This document shows positions 29,001 to 53,000 of a DNA stretch of 64,000 nt, piece by piece. The stretch lies in contig OY761611.1 of the NCBI GenBank assembly GCA_963664875.1, forward strand, positions 2,080,001 through 2,144,000, written 5' to 3'. Position numbers: made by a program. The DNA is from Candidatus Kapaibacterium sp. (GTDB lineage: Bacteria; Bacteroidota; Ignavibacteria; Kapaibacteriales; UBA2268). Position 1 is the stretch's first letter. Each line of letters starts with the position of its first letter.

Positions 29001-32000
29001 TGATAATATGATTATTGAAGAGGTAAAAAAAGAGGATATAAAGAAATATATATTTGAGTATATCCGCACTTATAATAGTATAACTCCTGCAGACAAAATA
29101 ATGATAGAGGAAAAGATTCGTAAGTCATCCAATACGTTATTCCCTGCAATTTTTTCAAACTTAGATTTTGTAAATGAAGAAGATATTCAAGTCAAATCTC
29201 AAGATACCTCTGATACGGTATTTAAATATTTTAAAAACGGAATTGTTCAGATAACTAAGCAAAGTGTGCTGCAACTACCTTACAATAGTTTAAATTATTA
29301 TGTTTGGAAAAATCAAATTATACAGAGAGACTATGTAGAATCAGATGATAAATTGTCAGAAATAGAACAATACATAACGGATGTATGTACTAACTCTCGT
29401 AATGGCATCTTTGAAGTACCTGATTCCGAACGTGTAACTTTACTCAAAAAAGCGATAGGGTATTTACTCACAGGATATAAAGACCCTGCACATTCTGTTG
29501 CAATTATTTTAACCGATGAAGAAATTTCAGACACTCCACAAGGAAGGACAGGTAAATCCTTATTAGGCAAGATGCTTATGCAAGTATCACAAGTAGCTGA
29601 TATAGATGGGAGAAGATTGAATCTCGATAATCAATTTTCATTTTCCAATGTTAGTCCATCCGACAAAATAATCTTTATAGATGATTGCAACAAAAAGTTC
29701 GATTTAACAAATTTATTTCATGTTATCACCGGAGGACTGACAGTAGAAAAGAAAGGTAGAGACAGCATTAAATTAGAATTCGATCAAACTCCAAAACTTC
29801 TACTGACTACAAATAATCTTATTAATCTTTCAGGAAGATCATCGACTGAACGTGTTGTCGAAATAGAATTTTCTGATTATTATGCGAATAAAACTCCTTT
29901 AGAAAAATTTGGACACCGTTTAATAACGGAATGGGATAATAAAGAATGGGCAAGATTCGATAATGCGTTAATACGGTATATTCAACTTTATCTACGTGAT
30001 GGGTTGAAACAAGAGAATAAAAACAATAGAAAACTAAAAACAATTTTGGAATCAATAGGACAAGCAATGTTTGAATTTATAGAAAATAATATTGAAATAA
30101 ACACAGCTTATCCAACCTCATCAGTTAAAGAAGCTTTTAAAGAACAAGAAGAATTAGAAGCTACAGAAATAATGAGTCAAACTGCATTTACTCAGTCTCT
30201 GCGAAAATATGCTGAACAGTATTTAGGATTCCAATTACTTACTGGTCATAAAAAGAAGAAAAAATGTTTTGTCATTACAGATAATAAAAATTCTAAATTT
30301 TCAGCTTTTGAAATAGCAGATGAATACAAATAATATTTTTACAAACCCTCCTACACTCAACTTTAGGAGGGTTTTCTATAACAAATCCAAATTTCTTACG
30401 TAAATCAATTATAAACGATTTTTTGTATCAAGAACACATAAGTGTACCAACCGAGCAAAAATGCCACGGTGGTAAAGTGATACGGCTTTTATAAGCAAAA
30501 ACCACTTCTTGGTACTCCATTTTAACATAGGAGTATTTTCCATGCCATTAGCAAAACCAATACCCGGATTCTCAATTCCAACTCGGACAGAGAAAAAGTA
30601 TTACAGATATTACAACACGCGTTGCCTAATTCAATCTCGCTCAGCAGAATTCAAAGATTTCTACAAAAATCCGCAAGGCTCGAGATACCTTGCCGAAAAA
30701 ATGGGTTGGACAAAACTAAATAAGTTTATTGGAAGAAGAGAGGGATGGGACAATTTATTGATTCCAATTCCAAAGACTTATCTTGAACTTCTTGGACTAA
30801 GTAAGGAAGATATTGAATATACAATTTCCTTAGATCAAGAGTATTATGATGAAATCCTAAAGACTGAAACTACTTATAAAGAAAGTTATTTAGTCTTCCG
30901 ATGGGCGATAAGAACAATAAGATTTCCTCATCCTTTGACTGAAGAAGAAGCTATTGATTTCAGCAGACAGCAATTGCTGAAGGAAAAGGTTTATAAACAA
31001 GTGCTGATAAATAGGATGCCTTTATATCAGCTTTATGTTACAAGAGAAAAGACGTTTTATGATTACAACAGACCTGCTTTTGCTTATGATGGAAAGTGGT
31101 ATAAGTTTATTAGCACACAATTACCGGGATTGTCTTTGAAATAATGGAGAGAGATATGGCAAACGCATATTGGATTCTACCTAAGAATATAACTGAAGAG
31201 TCTGCTGTTATTGAAGTGAGAGCAAAACACATAGATACTGTAATTGATAATCCCAATCTTTTTGGTTTGACCTTGATGAACATCCGAAAGACTTATAAGA
31301 AGTATGACGAAAAAATTCGATTTGAAGGATTTGCAAGAGAAGAAATTGTAAAATCACTGATAATGAAAGGCTACATTCATATTCGCAAAAATTTAAAGAC
31401 TGATTGTTGGAGAATAACATCTACAGATTTCTTCAGCGGTCTAAATGAAGCGGAGCAAACTACACTCAGCAGATTAGCAGATTGGTACCTTGTTGTTTCA
31501 CAAGAGAGGGAGCATCGCCATTCTGATTTCGAAATAATAATAATTGAGGGTAATGGTAGAAGATATGGAAATCAAGAGTTTAGAAATTTGGTTTTAGGGA
31601 AAGTAAATTAAATCAATTTTAGATATATAAAATAGTGATATAGATTGAAATTTCCCCTCAAACAACAACAATCCTGCACTCAAAAAAATGAAGTGCAGGA
31701 TTGTAATTAACCTACTATTTACGAAATTTTATATTTTCTATTTACATGAAAGAAAATATTTGATAATTTGAATCTAATATTTTATATTGCTATTATGTAG
31801 GACTTATTAACATTTTTATGAGAATCGCATATCAGAAAGAAAAATCAGAAAAATAACATATAACAGAAAATTTTAAATAAGAGTAATCTTAGATTCTTTG
31901 GGTCAGACAAAAACCGCAAATTTTTAAACAACCCCCAAGGATACTATAAGGACTCCACACGTGTGGATGTCTATATGTATCTATGAGTTGTGCCTTTTGC

Positions 32001-50000: not shown

Positions 50001-53000
50001 ATATCCTGCCATTTTTCATCGCTTTGTGTTTTTGTTATTCTATGAGCAAAGCTTATATCTTGATCGAGCTTTTTTATAATGCTACTAAATTGCTTGTATT
50101 TACTTTCTACAACTTTATTTACTGCATCAAATCCTCTTATTCTACGAAGAGTTGAGGGCATACTCAATACATTAAATTTCTCACTGAGCACAACTATTTC
50201 CTTGTTTTATAAGTAATAATTGGTTTGAGCTGAGCCAGTACTTTTATTATTCCTGCATCAGCCAATGCTGCAATTATATGCTCAATATTCTTGTATGCCT
50301 GTGGTGCTTCTTCGTATAAGAGATTTTTATCTTCACAAATTACGGCACTTCCAATTTCGGTGAGTTGCATTTTATCAATTGTATATTTATCACCAAGGAT
50401 AGATTTAGCGTTTTTACGTTTCCACTTTCTACCCGAACCATGAGCAAGTGAAAAAAGATTTTGTTCCTGACCACCAATAGGTAGCACAAGGTAGCTATAT
50501 GTACCACGAGACCCTGCAATTACAACAGCACCAAGGTCTGAACGAGCCGCACCCTTTCTATGTAAGTAGTATTCTTGATGACCAACAGTTGTTTTAGCAA
50601 TACAGTTGTGTTCTACATCTAAAACCGTCTTTGAAAAACTACCTAACTGTTCTAAAAACCTTTCAGCAATCAGCTTTCTACTTAGTTTTGCCCAATGAAC
50701 CGCATTATCATGTTGCTGAAGATACTTAGTTGCCTCTTCAGATTCTATTTTGAGCCCAGTAGAAGTGTTTGTTTCTGCAAATTCTTGAAAAATTGCAGAT
50801 CCAAGGCTTCTTGAACCACTATGTACTAATAATACAAGATTCTTTGAATCAACTCCTAAATCTAAAAGAGCGTTTTCATCAAAAACCTTTTCAATAGATT
50901 GAAGCTCTGCAAAATGGTTTCCACCACCAATTGTACCAATAGAAGAATCATATGAGGTAGATTCAACACCTGCTTCTTCCATAATAGCATTTATATTCCC
51001 ATCATAAGAATCCTCTAAGCCTGATAGCTTTCTGACCCACTTATCTCTTTTGATTTTAGATTTCTTTAGGTCTGTTTGGAATAATGCCATTCCACATCCC
51101 ACATCATTGCCAATTAAATGCGGATAAATAATCTTTTGTGTTGCTATGGTAACTCCTACTGGTCCTGAATGGATGTCGGGAAGCCCAATAGCTTGTTGAA
51201 CACCTTCAAGTTCAGAAACAAGCTTAAGTTGTTCGATTGCTTCGCTTTCTACCCAATTTTTGTCATTAGTTATTAGCTTGATTTTGTTGTTTATTTCTTT
51301 GAACATAGATTTTCTTTTAAATTATAATTGCTGAAATATACTTCAATGAGTGTCAAATCTTGTCGTTGATGTATAGATTTGAGTTTGCTATTGTTTTTTT
51401 GCATATCCCCATGCTTCCCAAACTTTTTCCCTACCATAAGATTCAAAGCTATTAACAAGCTGCAACTCCTGAAGCACTTGTAAATCTCGTTCAACGCTTC
51501 TCTGAGCTACATCATCACCTGAAGAATCTAATTGTAGCAAGATTTCTCTTTTTGTCAGTTTTAGACCTTTTAGAAACATTTTAAGAATTGTCAAGGTTCG
51601 AAAGGTTTTGTTTGTCGATGCCATGATTTCTCTCTCCAAAATTTTACAAATGGAGTATCAAGTAGCGGACTTTTTTTGCTTAAAAGCCGTATCCTTTTGC
51701 CACCGTGGCTACCTTGCTCGGTTGGCACACTACTTAAAGTGTTCTTGATACTATTTCTAAATAATACGTCAAAAATTGTAATTCGTTACAATTTAATCTA
51801 CCGAAATAAGCACAACATCTCATCACTTTGTTAAAAGTGTTCACAAAGAAAAAATAAAATTTATCAAAATCGTTTTATCTATCCTCCAAATATTTTTTAT
51901 GAGCAGCTACAACGTCTTCTGTTGTACTTCTTATGTATTTTTGTAATGACTTAATTGATTTATGACCAGACAGTCTGCAAACAGTAGATAGTGGAACGTT
52001 TTCATGTATCAACCAAGTAATAAATGTCCTTCTTGCAGTATGACTTGAAGCAGCTTCATATTTCGGTATCCTTTTTTCAACACGTTCCTTGCCTCTGAAA
52101 GAAGTGAGTATTATATCTTGATTTATCTCTGCCATTTTGCAAATTTCTTTAATCTTCCTATTGTAAACTTGACTACATTCTTTTGGTAATTGATAATTAT
52201 ATTTTTCAAGCATTTCTTTTGATATTTCATTATATGCGACAGTGACAGTTGTTGTTGTCTTTAGCATCTTAAAAGTAAGAGTTTGTTGACTCTTGTCAAA
52301 ATTTTCTGGTTTAAGATTAAACAAATCACTTACTCTTACTCCAGTATCAATTTGAAAGAGAAATAAATCTCTGTATTTTAAAATACCATCATCTAAATTA
52401 ATGAGATTTCTTATCCGATTTACTTCTACTATAGTTAGATAGATTGAATCTACTTCCTTCTGTATAACTTTCAATCCTTTTTTGTAAGCTACGGATGTAT
52501 GCCATTGTTGCTCATACGCATATCCCATAAATGTCTTTACTATTTTAACAACCTTACCAATAGAATTATCAGATAGATTATTTTGAATTAAAAATGTCGA
52601 AAATTTGCCTGCGAACACATCACCAACAGTAAAAAATTCTAATTGGTAATTTTCTTTTTTTACAAAGTTTTTTAAATGATTATAAGTAGATAAATAGCTG
52701 TCGATAGTTGATTTTTTTATCTGATTGCCATTACTCAATCTTATACCTGTTTTGGATCTCTCTATAAATTCTCTGAAATAGTCAAAAAATGTTTCTAAAG
52801 ATTTTGATGGATTGATTGTTCTTTCCAACTCATTTTTAAAATCTTCTTTTAGAAGAGGCAACATATGGCTAATTTTATTATTGTAAAATGTTACCATATG
52901 TGATTCGATTGTATGGAGAAAAGAATTTAGGTTTGTTGTATTTGTTGCACTACTTTTGAATCTCTTTTTCTTCTTATCCCAAAGTCTTTCGGAAAACTGT

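Follow-up and report, generated by a model that had tools for sequence, protein, structure and literature searches.

Organization of the integrative islands

The window analysed here is a stretch of 64,000 nucleotides from Candidatus Kapaibacterium sp. (GCA_963664875.1, contig OY761611.1, contig positions 2,080,001-2,144,000, with window position 1 at contig position 2,080,001). It harbors an island of ~36 kb (island 1, Table 1), which extends from the 3' end of a tRNA-Phe gene to a second copy of a 15-bp repeat located ~170 nt past the integrase start; this repeat is the sole match of at least 14 nt to the tRNA region within the window. The left part of the island carries genes for HTH_17, HsdM, Abi_2, HsdS, an M78 peptidase-like protein, DUF4411/PIN and HsdR, and then a phage-primase-like gene, whose stop codon is followed by a hairpin and a T run.

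Table 1. Features of island 1 and SAM-I/IV aptamers of the genome (window positions unless marked as contig)
Feature	Position	Strand	Evidence
tRNA-Phe gene; 3' end is the left att site of island 1	16991-17063	+	Rfam tRNA 71.9 bits; aragorn contig 2096991-2097064
15-bp direct repeat TCCGTCCCCGACCAC, left copy within tRNA 3' end	17050-17064	+	exact repeat, by script
Type I restriction-modification cluster after HTH_17, island cargo	17557-27271	+	Pfam
795-aa protein, phage-primase-like	27946-30333	+	phrog_28855 E 2.5e-55; phrog_1156 DNA primase E 3.6e-4
Duplicated cassette, copy 1	30373-51791	.	self-blastn
SAM-I/IV aptamer A	30420-30511	+	RF01725 61.7 bits
Putative expression platform A	30508-30544	+	sequence, folds; kept in 13/13 leaders
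200-aa protein P0004	30542-31144	+	first gene behind aptamer A
155-aa protein P0005, stand-alone module	31144-31611	+	hhalign, family search, Pfam
Further cassette genes, 612/98/567/282/360/161/357 aa	32020-39871	+	Pfam, PADLOC
Variable cargo, 2 proteins with type IX secretion sorting tail	40551-46761	+	Pfam Por_Secre_tail
Insertion sequence, copy 1 only	46982-48465	+	DDE_Tnp_1_4 transposase 47127-48434, Pfam E 1e-55
prfH-like gene, 207-aa release-factor homologue with GGQ motif (residue 122)	48903-49526	-	PF00472 E 1.6e-24
216-aa orphan between rtcB and prfH	49541-50191	-	no family match
rtcB RNA ligase, 370 aa	50194-51306	-	PF01139 E 1.4e-69; phrog_1075
78-aa probable winged-helix protein, first behind aptamer B	51388-51624	-	sub-threshold FUR E 0.0024, HTH_12, Arg_repressor
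Putative expression platform B	51622-51662	-	sequence, folds
SAM-I/IV aptamer B	51662-51756	-	RF01725 69.3 bits
Tyrosine integrase, island 1	51875-53107	-	Phage_integrase, Phage_int_SAM_5, Arm-DNA-bind_5
15-bp direct repeat, right copy	53276-53290	+	same script
SAM-I/IV aptamer	contig 1357544-1357638	+	RF01725 68.1 bits
SAM-I/IV aptamer	contig 1377046-1377137	-	RF01725 61.7 bits
Fifth SAM-I/IV aptamer	contig 20883-20975	-	RF01725 53.0 bits

The right part of island 1 is occupied by a cassette of ~20 kb that is present twice in the genome, once in each of two islands, with 95-99% identity, and that is bounded by two inward-facing riboswitch leaders. In a self-blastn comparison, window 30373-40546 was 99.3% identical to contig 1377184-1367009, and window 45475-46986 (97.6%) and 48462-51791 (95.7%) were identical to this extent to contig 1362367-1357509. 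The repeated unit begins 47 nt before aptamer A and ends 35 nt before aptamer B, and its middle (window 40547-45474) differs between the two copies; the variable cargo in this part consists of proteins of 462 aa (with WD40) and 1603 aa. Among the further cassette genes, the 282-aa protein combines a Zn-ribbon with Fib_succ_major, the 360-aa protein DZR with GYF_2 and the 357-aa protein EcsC with TerB (PADLOC candidate PDC-S29, E 2.1e-57). Two further copies of the insertion sequence, 99.5-99.6% identical, are found in the genome.

Island 2 is flanked by a 21-bp repeat of the tmRNA 3' end, with its integrase 185 nt off. The preliminary description regarded the region as one integrase-bearing island that occurs in full twice and once in diverged form, with the integrase as part of the repeat. 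Instead, the duplicated cassette does not include the island-1 integrase, the integrases of the two islands are only 29% identical, and their HsdR proteins are unrelated, each island having its own type I restriction system adjoining the cassette. Cas6 and a TM1802-family protein were observed in island 2, and no cas10 was present among the island proteins scanned. With a tyrosine integrase, tRNA-Phe or tmRNA 3'-end repeats and R-M, Abi, PIN and CRISPR cargo, these elements resemble integrative defence islands at tRNA/tmRNA genes; they differ in sharing a cassette of ~20 kb while being otherwise unrelated. The alignments indicate that this cassette has been exchanged between the two islands, with break points just outside the two leaders.

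SAM-I/IV aptamers of the genome

A genome-wide Rfam search returned exactly five RF01725 matches of 53.0-69.3 bits (gathering cut-off 41.1 bits), all covering model positions 1-99, which reproduces the earlier count and positions; no match occurred in any of 14 control genomes. SAM-I, SAM-II and SAM-IV (RF00162, RF00521, RF00634) gave no matches in the genome at E<=0.1, in agreement with the reported lack of SAM-I. The aptamer core blocks UAUCAAGA, CCAACCG and ACGGUGG..GAU(A/G)CGG are the same, letter for letter, as in 15 metK-leader aptamers of other Bacteroidota. According to the family description (Weinberg et al. 2010, PMC2864571), SAM-I/IV riboswitches have no P2 internal loop, and the P2 stems here, hairpins of 13-17 nt, are consistent with this. 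The likeness extends to the platform, which is proposed here from sequence to act on translation.

The genes downstream are as first described: two aptamers precede a 78-aa ORF, RtcB, a 216-aa orphan and an RF-1-domain protein, three precede a 200-aa orphan gene, and none of the five is followed by an annotated methionine or SAM gene. Unlike in the known family, the predicted regulon consists of ribosome-repair and orphan island genes. Every aptamer of the genome is located on mobile or defence DNA or next to it, and two of them frame the mobile cassette. The proposed placement of all aptamers on integrase-bearing islands held for four of the five, for which att repeats were found; the fifth heads a diverged paralogous operon, and no integrase of the island-1/2 family was found near it. 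Its junction before P1 reads CAGGAC, versus UAAAAA in metK leaders.

Expression platforms

In platform A, the anti-P1 stretch CUUGGUAC (30508-30515) overlaps the anti-SD UACUCC (30513-30518), followed by the SD GGAGUA at 30530-35 and the AUG at 30542. Platform B is built alike, with anti-P1 CUUGAUAC (51662-51655), anti-SD CUCCA (51655-51651), GGAG at 51637-34 and AUG at 51624-22. In an alignment of 13 related leaders from 7 genomes or MAGs, the anti-P1 CUUGRUAC overlapping UACUC, then GGAG and AUG, was kept in all 13, and the linkers between the conserved UACUC, GGAG and AUG varied. RNAalifold chose a long-range pairing, GUAUCAAG:CUUGRUAC, and 12-13 of the 13 sequences retained each of its eight pairs. 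P3 showed both-side changes at three pairs; the anti-P1 helix is unable to show covariation because its 5' strand is part of the invariant ligand core, so that conservation is what points to this helix.

When P1 was forced, 13 of the 15 distinct leaders had all four nt of the SD window paired and the other two had three of the four, at a cost of 1.8-5.0 kcal/mol above the free fold. The ligand-free minimum-energy folds contained the full anti-P1 helix in 11/15 leaders, a partial one in 3/15 and another fold in 1/15. The GGAG window was nevertheless fully paired in eight of these 15 ligand-free folds, in L014, L042, L048, L062, L063 and L073 with the same anti-SD stretch; a clean switch does not emerge from the thermodynamic model. 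No terminator-like site was found between aptamer and start codon in the leaders. Taken together, the predicted layout is that of a SAM-off translational switch, as had been proposed by eye; the conserved anti-P1, anti-SD and GGAG elements bear this out, while the folds are less clean than they had appeared.

The rtcB-prfH operon

An rtcB ligase gene beside a GGQ release-factor homologue recalls the RtcB2-PrfH rescue/repair module (PMC9304027, PMC9223846). The operon here differs in the 78-aa winged-helix-like gene in front, in the 216-aa orphan between rtcB and prfH and in its control by a putative SAM riboswitch. The 78-aa protein is 49% identical to an 80-aa ORF at 53448-53690, which itself has a weak WYL-type HTH match. 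The 216-aa orphan matched no family in Pfam, PADLOC or PHROGs; it is retained in copy 2 of the cassette, where rtcB is frameshifted, and a shortened form occurs in genome G004. Outside the cassette, rtcB and prfH do not occur in the genome. The same leader precedes the 78-aa ORF, rtcB and prfH in G004, as already noted. We found no literature treating prfH, rtcB and a riboswitch together, and nothing appears to link SAM biochemically to rtcB-prfH.

The 200-aa gene and a module tied to SAM lyases

P0004 had no Pfam, PADLOC or PHROGs match and only 11 relatives were found; its AF2 model (pLDDT 79) matched no PDB structure, and hhalign gave no similarity to SAM lyase (probability 0.6%). The family is found behind the same leader in G001, G004 and G062, the last belonging to another genus, and is not, as previously held, genus-restricted.

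The gene that follows, overlooked in the preliminary description, encodes P0005, which likely starts at 31156, behind GGAGAGAG, as read from the junction. It belongs to a family of ~150-aa modules whose profile recovered 1,329 clusters at E<=1e-3. Among 35 longer members tested, 16 had PF23780 (S-AdoMet_lyase) fused to the module, 14 of them above the Pfam cut-off, and three more had DUF3293 alone. Aligned by hhalign with nine such fusions, the P0005 family gave a probability of 99.9% (E 6.7e-32, 136 columns). For one fusion, 28 phage records match the lyase half, and one of these carries the annotation S-adenosyl-L-methionine hydrolase. The four module matches of the genome all lie within the three 200-aa-type riboswitch operons. 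Because the module so often occurs joined to SAM lyases of the phage type, the regulon, which comprises ribosome-repair and module operons instead of methionine genes, would have a SAM connection that had previously gone unnoticed.

This link is one of guilt by fusion. Elsewhere the module is joined to enzymes of the phage SAM lyase/SAMase type (PF23780; Svi3-3 and T3 SAMase, PMC7877911), whereas the window has no lyase domain and neither P0004 nor P0005 matches PF23780; PF23780 had no match in the genome either, in a search that is weak in that it matched in no control. The module family stands directly behind the leader in G010 and three MAGs (54.2-54.6 bits). Across ten metagenome module loci the aptamer motif lay upstream in two, the G477 gene is without it, and most family members appear to lack a riboswitch.

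Proposed regulation and possible triggers

We consider it fairly probable that these are functional SAM-binding SAM-I/IV aptamers which, with translational OFF platforms, govern the island operons. When SAM is bound, the short P1 (GUAUC/GAUAC) would form and free the downstream CUUGRUACUC, so that UACUC could pair with GGAG(UA) before the start codon and block translation. When SAM is lacking, CUUGRUAC would pair with GUAUCAAG, which comprises the P1 5' strand and J1/2 nucleotides, breaking the aptamer and weakening or freeing the ribosome-binding site. Because of this SAM-off layout, the cargo is expected to be silent at normal SAM and made when SAM drops. Two operon types would be controlled in this manner, the wHTH-rtcB-216aa-prfH ribosome-repair module and the 200-aa protein with one or two module copies; both seem to move as one cassette, with leaders at its ends, within defence islands integrated at tRNA/tmRNA genes, next to type I restriction systems that depend on SAM.

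SAM-off riboswitches monitor how well the cell is supplied with methionine and SAM. Low SAM might simply signal starvation or slow growth, with a borrowed host riboswitch restricting costly cargo, including RNA repair, and no phage involved, a reading that we hold as possible and tentative. Capture of a host leader is conceivable since related lineages have closely similar aptamers in front of metK, MTHFR and sulfhydrylase genes. However, this reading leaves unexplained why all four genes of a SAM-lyase-tied family lie behind switches and why the pairing of leader and module recurs in distant MAGs.

As a rule, SAM-off switches turn on functions that restore SAM. One possible trigger of the genes is attack by a phage that makes a SAM lyase. 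In the fuller form of this reading, which we regard as rather unlikely, the riboswitches would sense the SAM crash that such a lyase or a MetK inhibitor causes and that disables the neighbouring SAM-dependent type I restriction system, and would turn on a second line. It accommodates the fusions to a phage-type lyase, the surrounding defence islands, the type I R-M systems beside both cassette copies and the EcoEI-type HsdR found immediately beside rtcB-type leaders in G000 (copy 2), G003 and G004; the G004 cassette also carries SIR2-HerA. T3 SAMase is reported to overcome both type I R-M and BREX by cleaving SAM and blocking its synthesis (10.1101/2023.02.27.530186; PMC7877911). Its further detail, that the stand-alone module acts on the phage lyase, e.g., as decoy or inhibitor, and that RtcB-PrfH repairs the translation machinery, is likewise doubtful. 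Against both, the module has neither a PADLOC nor a fold match, it was found in one IMG/VR contig and not in isolated phages, starvation also lowers SAM, and the tie to rtcB-prfH is conjectural.

Less likely still is a counter-defence role, in which the 200-aa protein and the module would serve the mobile element against restriction by lowering or exploiting SAM, as SAM lyases do, and the riboswitch would keep them off in an established host. In the fusions the partner of the module is indeed an anti-restriction enzyme, one metagenome homologue adjoins a RadC/JAB-like gene (named by reading of its translation), and the family is as sporadic as mobile cargo, occurring in 3 of 401 genomes sampled in the phylum. 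However, a function that lowers SAM would, under a SAM-off switch, boost its own expression in a runaway positive feedback, the genes are located well within the islands rather than at a leading edge, and the weak search revealed no lyase in the genome.

Finally, drift of the aptamers to another ligand (SAH, or the SAM-AMP messenger of some type III CRISPR systems, which with SAM-AMP-cleaving lyases exists in Bacteroidota and Clostridia according to PMC10600005) or their decay into remnants without a regulatory role is very improbable, since the non-canonical gene context, the altered junction of the fifth copy and the G003 leader, which has neither platform nor cargo, are outweighed by the Cas content of island 2, the high scores, core blocks equal to those of metK-leader aptamers and a platform conserved across genera.

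SAM-I/IV aptamers and their ligand

Five matches to RF01725 (SAM-I/IV) were found in the 3.83-Mb genome with the Rfam covariance model, at 69.3, 68.1, 61.7, 61.7 and 53.0 bits against a gathering score of 41.1. All five cover model positions 1-99 and thus belong to the family by both score and full length, while none of the 14 control genomes gave a match. The preliminary description had listed the same five matches, and they were reproduced at the same coordinates and in the same range (53.0-69.3 bits). Its statement that SAM-I is absent was likewise borne out: RF00162 was blank across the genome at E<=0.1, as were RF00521 (SAM-II) and RF00634 (SAM-IV), the SAM-II blank being weak because RF00521 exceeded its cut-off in no control. 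None of the five leaders precedes a methionine or SAM gene, again as described; membership in RF01725 stands despite this gene context, because such genes are the usual context of the family and not a structural criterion.

The helices are supported by compensatory changes, which were checked over P1-P3. Among 13 leaders, two-sided changes were seen at three pairs of P3; the P2 stems vary but remain complementary (CACUU/AGUG, CACA/UGUG, GCUU/AGC and UCCA/UGGA), and in the compared genome G007 P1 reads AUAUC/GAUAU in place of GUAUC/GAUAC. In addition, the core blocks UAUCAAGA, CCAACCG and ACGGUGG..GAU(A/G)CGG are the same in the aptamers of this genome (G000) and in 15 metK-leader aptamers from Emticicia and other Bacteroidota, from which the fifth aptamer (53.0 bits) deviates in one junction, before P1. 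Judged by these comparisons, the ligand of the aptamers is very probably SAM.

Aptamers, integrase and islands (positions in the window unless the contig is named)
Feature	Position	Strand	Remark
SAM-I/IV aptamer A	30420-30511	+	RF01725, 61.7 bits
SAM-I/IV aptamer B	51662-51756	-	RF01725, 69.3 bits
Fifth SAM-I/IV aptamer	contig 20883-20975	-	RF01725, 53.0 bits
Integrase of island 1	51875-53107		outside the repeat
Island 1	17050-17064 (tRNA-Phe 3' end) to 53276-53290		exact 15-bp repeat, right copy just past the integrase
Island 2	contig 1345390 to tmRNA 3' end		21-bp repeat, left copy 185 nt before the integrase

Predicted expression platform

Within the lineage, the leaders follow a single order: the aptamer, a variable A-rich linker, CUUGRUACUC, a loop of 11-16 nt in most leaders, GGAG(UA), 5-9 nt and the AUG. 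The stretch CUUGRUAC (anti-P1) complements GUAUCAAG, which comprises the 5' strand of P1 and the J1/2 core, and the overlapping UACUC(C) (anti-SD) complements the Shine-Dalgarno (SD) region. The long-range anti-P1 helix is the consensus fold obtained with RNAalifold for 13 leaders from seven genomes or MAGs, each of its eight pairs being retained in 12 or 13 of the 13 leaders; covariation is not possible in this helix, one strand of which belongs to the ligand core and is invariant. Forcing P1 left all 4 nt of the SD window paired in 13 of the 15 distinct leaders and 3 of the 4 nt in the remaining two, in folds lying 1.8-5.0 kcal/mol above the free fold. The elements of the SAM-off layout with a hidden GGAG that had been proposed earlier are therefore conserved, but the SD window is also fully paired in the ligand-free minimum-energy fold of 8 of the 15 leaders; in some of these its partner is again the anti-SD stretch.

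A terminator scan found no terminator-like hairpin in leader A or leader B; the sites returned by the terminator and promoter scans were no more frequent than in shuffled sequences, and the operon ends were left undefined by these scans. The predicted layout is that expected for a SAM-off switch of translation, and the best-supported reading is that the leaders are SAM-off translational switches that would hold the island cargo silent until SAM falls. Among the listed sequencing runs that contain this stretch, none is recorded as RNA.

One cassette in two different islands

Self-comparison of the genome showed 99.3% identity between 30373-40546 and contig 1377184-1367009, and identities of 97.6% for 45475-46986 and 95.7% for 48462-51791 with contig 1362367-1357509. 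The two ends of the repeat thus lie outside the leaders, 47 nt before aptamer A and 35 nt before aptamer B, and it is a cassette of about 20 kb framed by two inward-facing riboswitch leaders. The middle of the cassette, with its secreted-protein genes, differs between copy 1 (in the window) and copy 2, and copy 1 is interrupted by an IS of which two further copies lie elsewhere in the genome.

The preliminary description had taken these for copies of one integrase-bearing island. The integrases of the two islands are only 29% identical, however, and their HsdR proteins are unrelated; therefore, one cassette lies in two different islands, with the integrase outside the repeat. Both are integrative islands, as each combines an integrase with a flanking direct repeat of the 3' end of tRNA-Phe or of the tmRNA gene, the right 21-nt repeat of island 2 lying within the tmRNA gene (contig 1395761-1396123). 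Island 1 carries HTH_17, a type I restriction-modification (R-M) system with Abi_2, M78 peptidase-like and PIN-like genes, a primase-like gene and the cassette; island 2 carries another type I R-M system, the cassette, replication-like genes, Cas6 and a TM1802-family Cas protein.

The fifth aptamer stands at the front of a paralogous operon, with McrBC-like and UvrD/PD-(D/E)XK-like genes in the neighbourhood. Its assignment to a diverged copy of the island could not be upheld: neither an att repeat nor an integrase of the islands' family was found around it, and the features that mark an integrative island were thus not seen there. A remnant of the prfH C-terminus (21 residues, 86% identical) lies at contig 38928-38990, 18 kb from the fifth aptamer; this gap equals the spacing of the corresponding leaders in the compared genome G004, in which all three leader types occur within 35 kb. 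The remnant suggests that a decayed copy of the cassette may be present here.

After attR of island 1, a second block of defence genes extends over 53291-64000 and beyond, with an 80-aa wHTH paralogue of p78 (the 78-aa ORF behind aptamer B), REase-ARP, T5orf172, a DEAD helicase, a MmeI-like type IIL gene and DUF4917. Two more integrases are located at contig 2145.6-2148.2 kb, just beyond the window, and the block looks like a tandem island array at tRNA-Phe. As a separate observation, the last ~300 bp of a 462-aa WD40 gene (41622-41927) encode a type IX secretion sorting tail and are 91-95% identical to five sites at contig 2.59-2.66 Mb; to judge from these identities, the tail belongs to a family of recently exchanged C-terminal tails.

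Defence genes around the leaders

Type I R-M is found beside the cassette in both islands, and an EcoEI-type HsdR lies directly beside the rtcB-type leader in copy 2 of this genome and in the compared genomes G003 and G004. The cassette itself includes the PADLOC candidate PDC-S29, and that of G004 (L021 9688-13189) has a SIR2-HerA pair (PADLOC, HerA E 1e-291, SIR2 E 6e-170) where G000 has secreted-protein genes. In G007 (L024 7612-11268), a leader of the same kind lies inside a defence island, and the genes behind it encode a 244-aa orphan, an AAA_15 ATPase (PADLOC, NsnB E 4e-21, AriA E 2e-17) and a 302-aa orphan; a WYL/WCX regulator, a NERD-UvrD helicase, a SNF2-PLD helicase and a type IIG-like methylase are found near this leader. 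The aptamer of G003 (rtcB-type, 64.5 bits, L009/L026 9866-9960) lies beside a split EcoEI-type HsdR. Its context had been called ordinary, and a cysteine-desulfurase-rhodanese fusion does follow ~350 nt on; however, the anti-P1/anti-SD platform is lost, and this looks like a leader stranded by cassette loss.

The rtcB-prfH operon

Aptamer B is followed by four genes, encoding p78, RtcB (PF01139, E 1.4e-69), a 216-aa orphan and an RF-1-domain protein, PrfH (PF00472, E 1.6e-24), with GGQ at residue 122. As in the RtcB2-PrfH module, neighbouring rtcB and prfH genes encode RtcB and RF-1 domains with a GGQ, whereas here the 216-aa orphan stands between them. From the sequences, we infer that this module may rescue ribosomes with cleaved 16S rRNA, with religation. 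Both operons of this gene order that had been reported are present, but rtcB of copy 2 is frameshifted into 79-aa and 300-aa frames (contig 1357994-1359105; L006 12994-14105), its prfH and 216-aa gene being intact. Beyond the riboswitch-linked copies and the prfH remnant, no other rtcB and prfH locus was found in the genome.

A module shared with SAM lyase fusions

Aptamer A is followed by a 200-aa orphan (P0004) and a 155-aa orphan (P0005), and in the operon of the fifth aptamer the 200-aa gene is followed by two P0005 paralogues, of 360 and 237 aa. P0004 has 11 relatives among 5.8 billion clusters and matched neither a protein family nor a fold in Pfam, PADLOC, PHROGs and fold searches. For both proteins, word-index searches returned only 4 close relatives each, Foldseek gave matches only at E of at least 0.07, the best VIA scores (Z 7.1 and 6.7) fell on unrelated proteins, and the ESM Atlas gave no lead. 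The proposal that P0004 is a hidden SAM lyase was rejected (hhalign probability 0.6% against the lyase fusions described below), its structural hint being 6zm9 alone, at Z 3.3, within noise. PF23780 (S-adenosylmethionine lyase) was found in neither P0004 nor P0005 even at E<=5, nor anywhere in a genome scan, which also matched in no control.

P0005 represents a module of ~150 aa. When 1.84 billion representatives were searched with a profile built on its first ~90 residues, 1,329 clusters matched at E<=1e-3, of which 964 did so at E<=1e-10. From the 150 matches listed, 35 of the longer proteins, with lengths of 280-1211 aa, were chosen for a Pfam search together with 4 short ones. PF23780 was present in 16 of the 35 longer proteins, 14 of them above the Pfam cut-off, either N- or C-terminal to the module, and DUF3293, which matches the same region as the lyase domain, was found alone in 3 more; the four short proteins were without any Pfam family. 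The P0005 family aligned with nine of these fusions over 136 columns (hhalign, 99.9%, E 6.7e-32), and therefore the whole 155-aa P0005 is the counterpart of what the fusions carry beside the lyase, with homology along the entire module (~140 aa).

The lyase half of one fusion matched 28 phage records, one of which is annotated as S-adenosyl-L-methionine hydrolase. The search with P0005 did not find the module in isolated phage genomes, and viral contigs held no close relatives of the fusion P0143; one IMG/VR contig holds the module, as a DUF3293-module fusion. At the IMG/VR locus L155, a 323-aa phage protein (2473-3444) combines a DUF3293/lyase-like N-terminal half with a P0005-type module; its 226-aa upstream neighbour resembles a paralogue of this N-terminal half, and a long nearby protein is cytidylyltransferase/Nudix-like by reading of its sequence.

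All four module matches in G000 fall within the three 200-aa-type riboswitch operons. Among 401 genomes sampled from the phylum, 3 carry the module, the copy of G477 being without an aptamer, and the aptamer motif lies upstream of the module at 2 of 10 metagenome loci; the pairing is therefore lineage-specific and not universal. Through this module, the 'orphan' regulon would be directly tied to SAM turnover.

What the switches may sense

SAM riboswitches are feedback regulators of methionine and SAM metabolism. The fall in SAM that the island leaders would sense might be that of starvation, an explanation that we regard as possible but doubtful. According to published reports, it is by cleaving SAM that phage SAM lyases overcome SAM-dependent type I restriction and BREX (PMC7877911; 10.1101/2023.02.27.530186), and their relatives degrade the CRISPR messenger SAM-AMP (PMC10600005). 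A speculative reading, to which we give a rather low probability, is that the switches are infection sensors of a lyase-caused SAM crash, inducing an anti-SAMase module and ribosome repair. A phage SAM lyase would deplete SAM to blind SAM-dependent restriction; the crash would relieve the SAM-I/IV switches and turn the island-borne countermeasures on, and the module, which phage lyases carry in cis, would act here from a stand-alone copy as an anti-SAMase, with the ribosome-repair genes induced together with it. That the module instead has a counter-defence role seems quite improbable. SAM control over ribosome repair is explained by none of these readings.

If infection sensing were true, the switches would constitute an RNA 'guard' of the cofactor pool in anti-phage defence and the first riboswitch acting as a phage-defence sensor, and would offer a handle on a large unannotated family (>1,300 clusters) that partners SAM lyases; if they report phage-induced SAM loss, an rtcB-prfH ribosome-repair operon would also have a known regulatory input for the first time. 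The entire SAM-riboswitch set of this genome appears to have been captured by mobile defence islands, with one regulon tied through fusions to a phage SAM-destroying enzyme. The RNA class, the RtcB-PrfH pair and tRNA/tmRNA islands are already known, whereas the regulon, the cassette framed by two leaders, the whole-set island capture and the module-SAM-lyase link appear to be new. In the literature searched, nothing was found on prfH, rtcB and a riboswitch together; for SAM riboswitches with mobile elements and phage, nothing was on topic by title or abstract start, and for riboswitch, SAM lyase and restriction combined, nothing was relevant among the matches listed. Non-metabolic contexts of SAM-I/IV may already be noted in the supplementary gene-context lists of Weinberg 2010.

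Distribution of leaders and downstream genes

RF01725 is rare in relatives, with matches in 6 of 61 genomes of a first sample and in 8 of 151 genomes of an order sample (6 over the cut-off), G000 included in each. Canonical contexts also occur in the order: the aptamer of G161 precedes an O-acetylhomoserine-sulfhydrylase-like gene, and sub-threshold, terminator-bearing matches in G160 and G164 precede cystathionine-lyase-like genes, these names coming from reading the translations. An rtcB-type leader precedes p78-rtcB-prfH in G004, and the 200-aa family lies behind a leader in G001, G004 (twice) and G062. As G062, whose protein shows 32% identity, is a member of a different genus, the 200-aa gene is not genus-restricted as had been claimed. 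In G010, a leader stands directly before a 213-aa P0005 homologue (39% over 90 aa, E 2e-16).

An exact aptamer-pattern scan with one genome per species gave at least 115 stretches, and 80 of them were retrieved. By a simple rule, 75 of these 80 had a downstream ORF, which was metK in 15 cases; the others included an MTHFR gene, an ABC permease gene and many uncharacterised genes. Out of 20 non-canonical loci, 16 passed the Rfam gathering score at once and 3 more reached 54.2-54.6 bits with laxer filters, one staying below at 38.8 bits; at those three ~54-bit loci (a Chlorobiota MAG and two others) the aptamer lies directly before P0005 homologues. A cautious reading is that the gene context of this riboswitch in Bacteroidota and relatives is far wider than metabolism.

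A search of IMG/VR with the pattern gave 13 matches, which all lie in one GC-rich coding segment of a conserved phage gene, and as none of the 14 IMG/VR loci matched Rfam, the pattern revealed no aptamer borne by a phage. In these 13 contigs (L142-L154), the 22-nt core pattern occurs by chance within a structural-looking phage gene, which is a caution against pattern-only riboswitch scans.

Several further families were observed behind aptamers. At L031, L056, L079 and L080 (Prevotella, Muribaculaceae), aptamers (50-54 bits; L079 known by pattern) lie directly before 256-288-aa proteins, for which Pfam gave only sub-threshold NADAR at L031 and L080 (29.9 vs 35.1 bits). At L041, L084, L096, L100 and L105 (Flavobacteriaceae, Chitinophagales), they precede 65-73-aa ORFs, and a tRNA gene lies 276 nt upstream of L041 and 812 nt upstream of L084, as at island edges. 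Finally, a 101-152-aa family (MSVISFNK...) at L030, L074 and L098 starts 33-39 nt past the aptamer pattern; its start codon therefore lies within the aptamer 3' tail, a predicted platform that differs from the CUUGRUACUC-type platform studied here.
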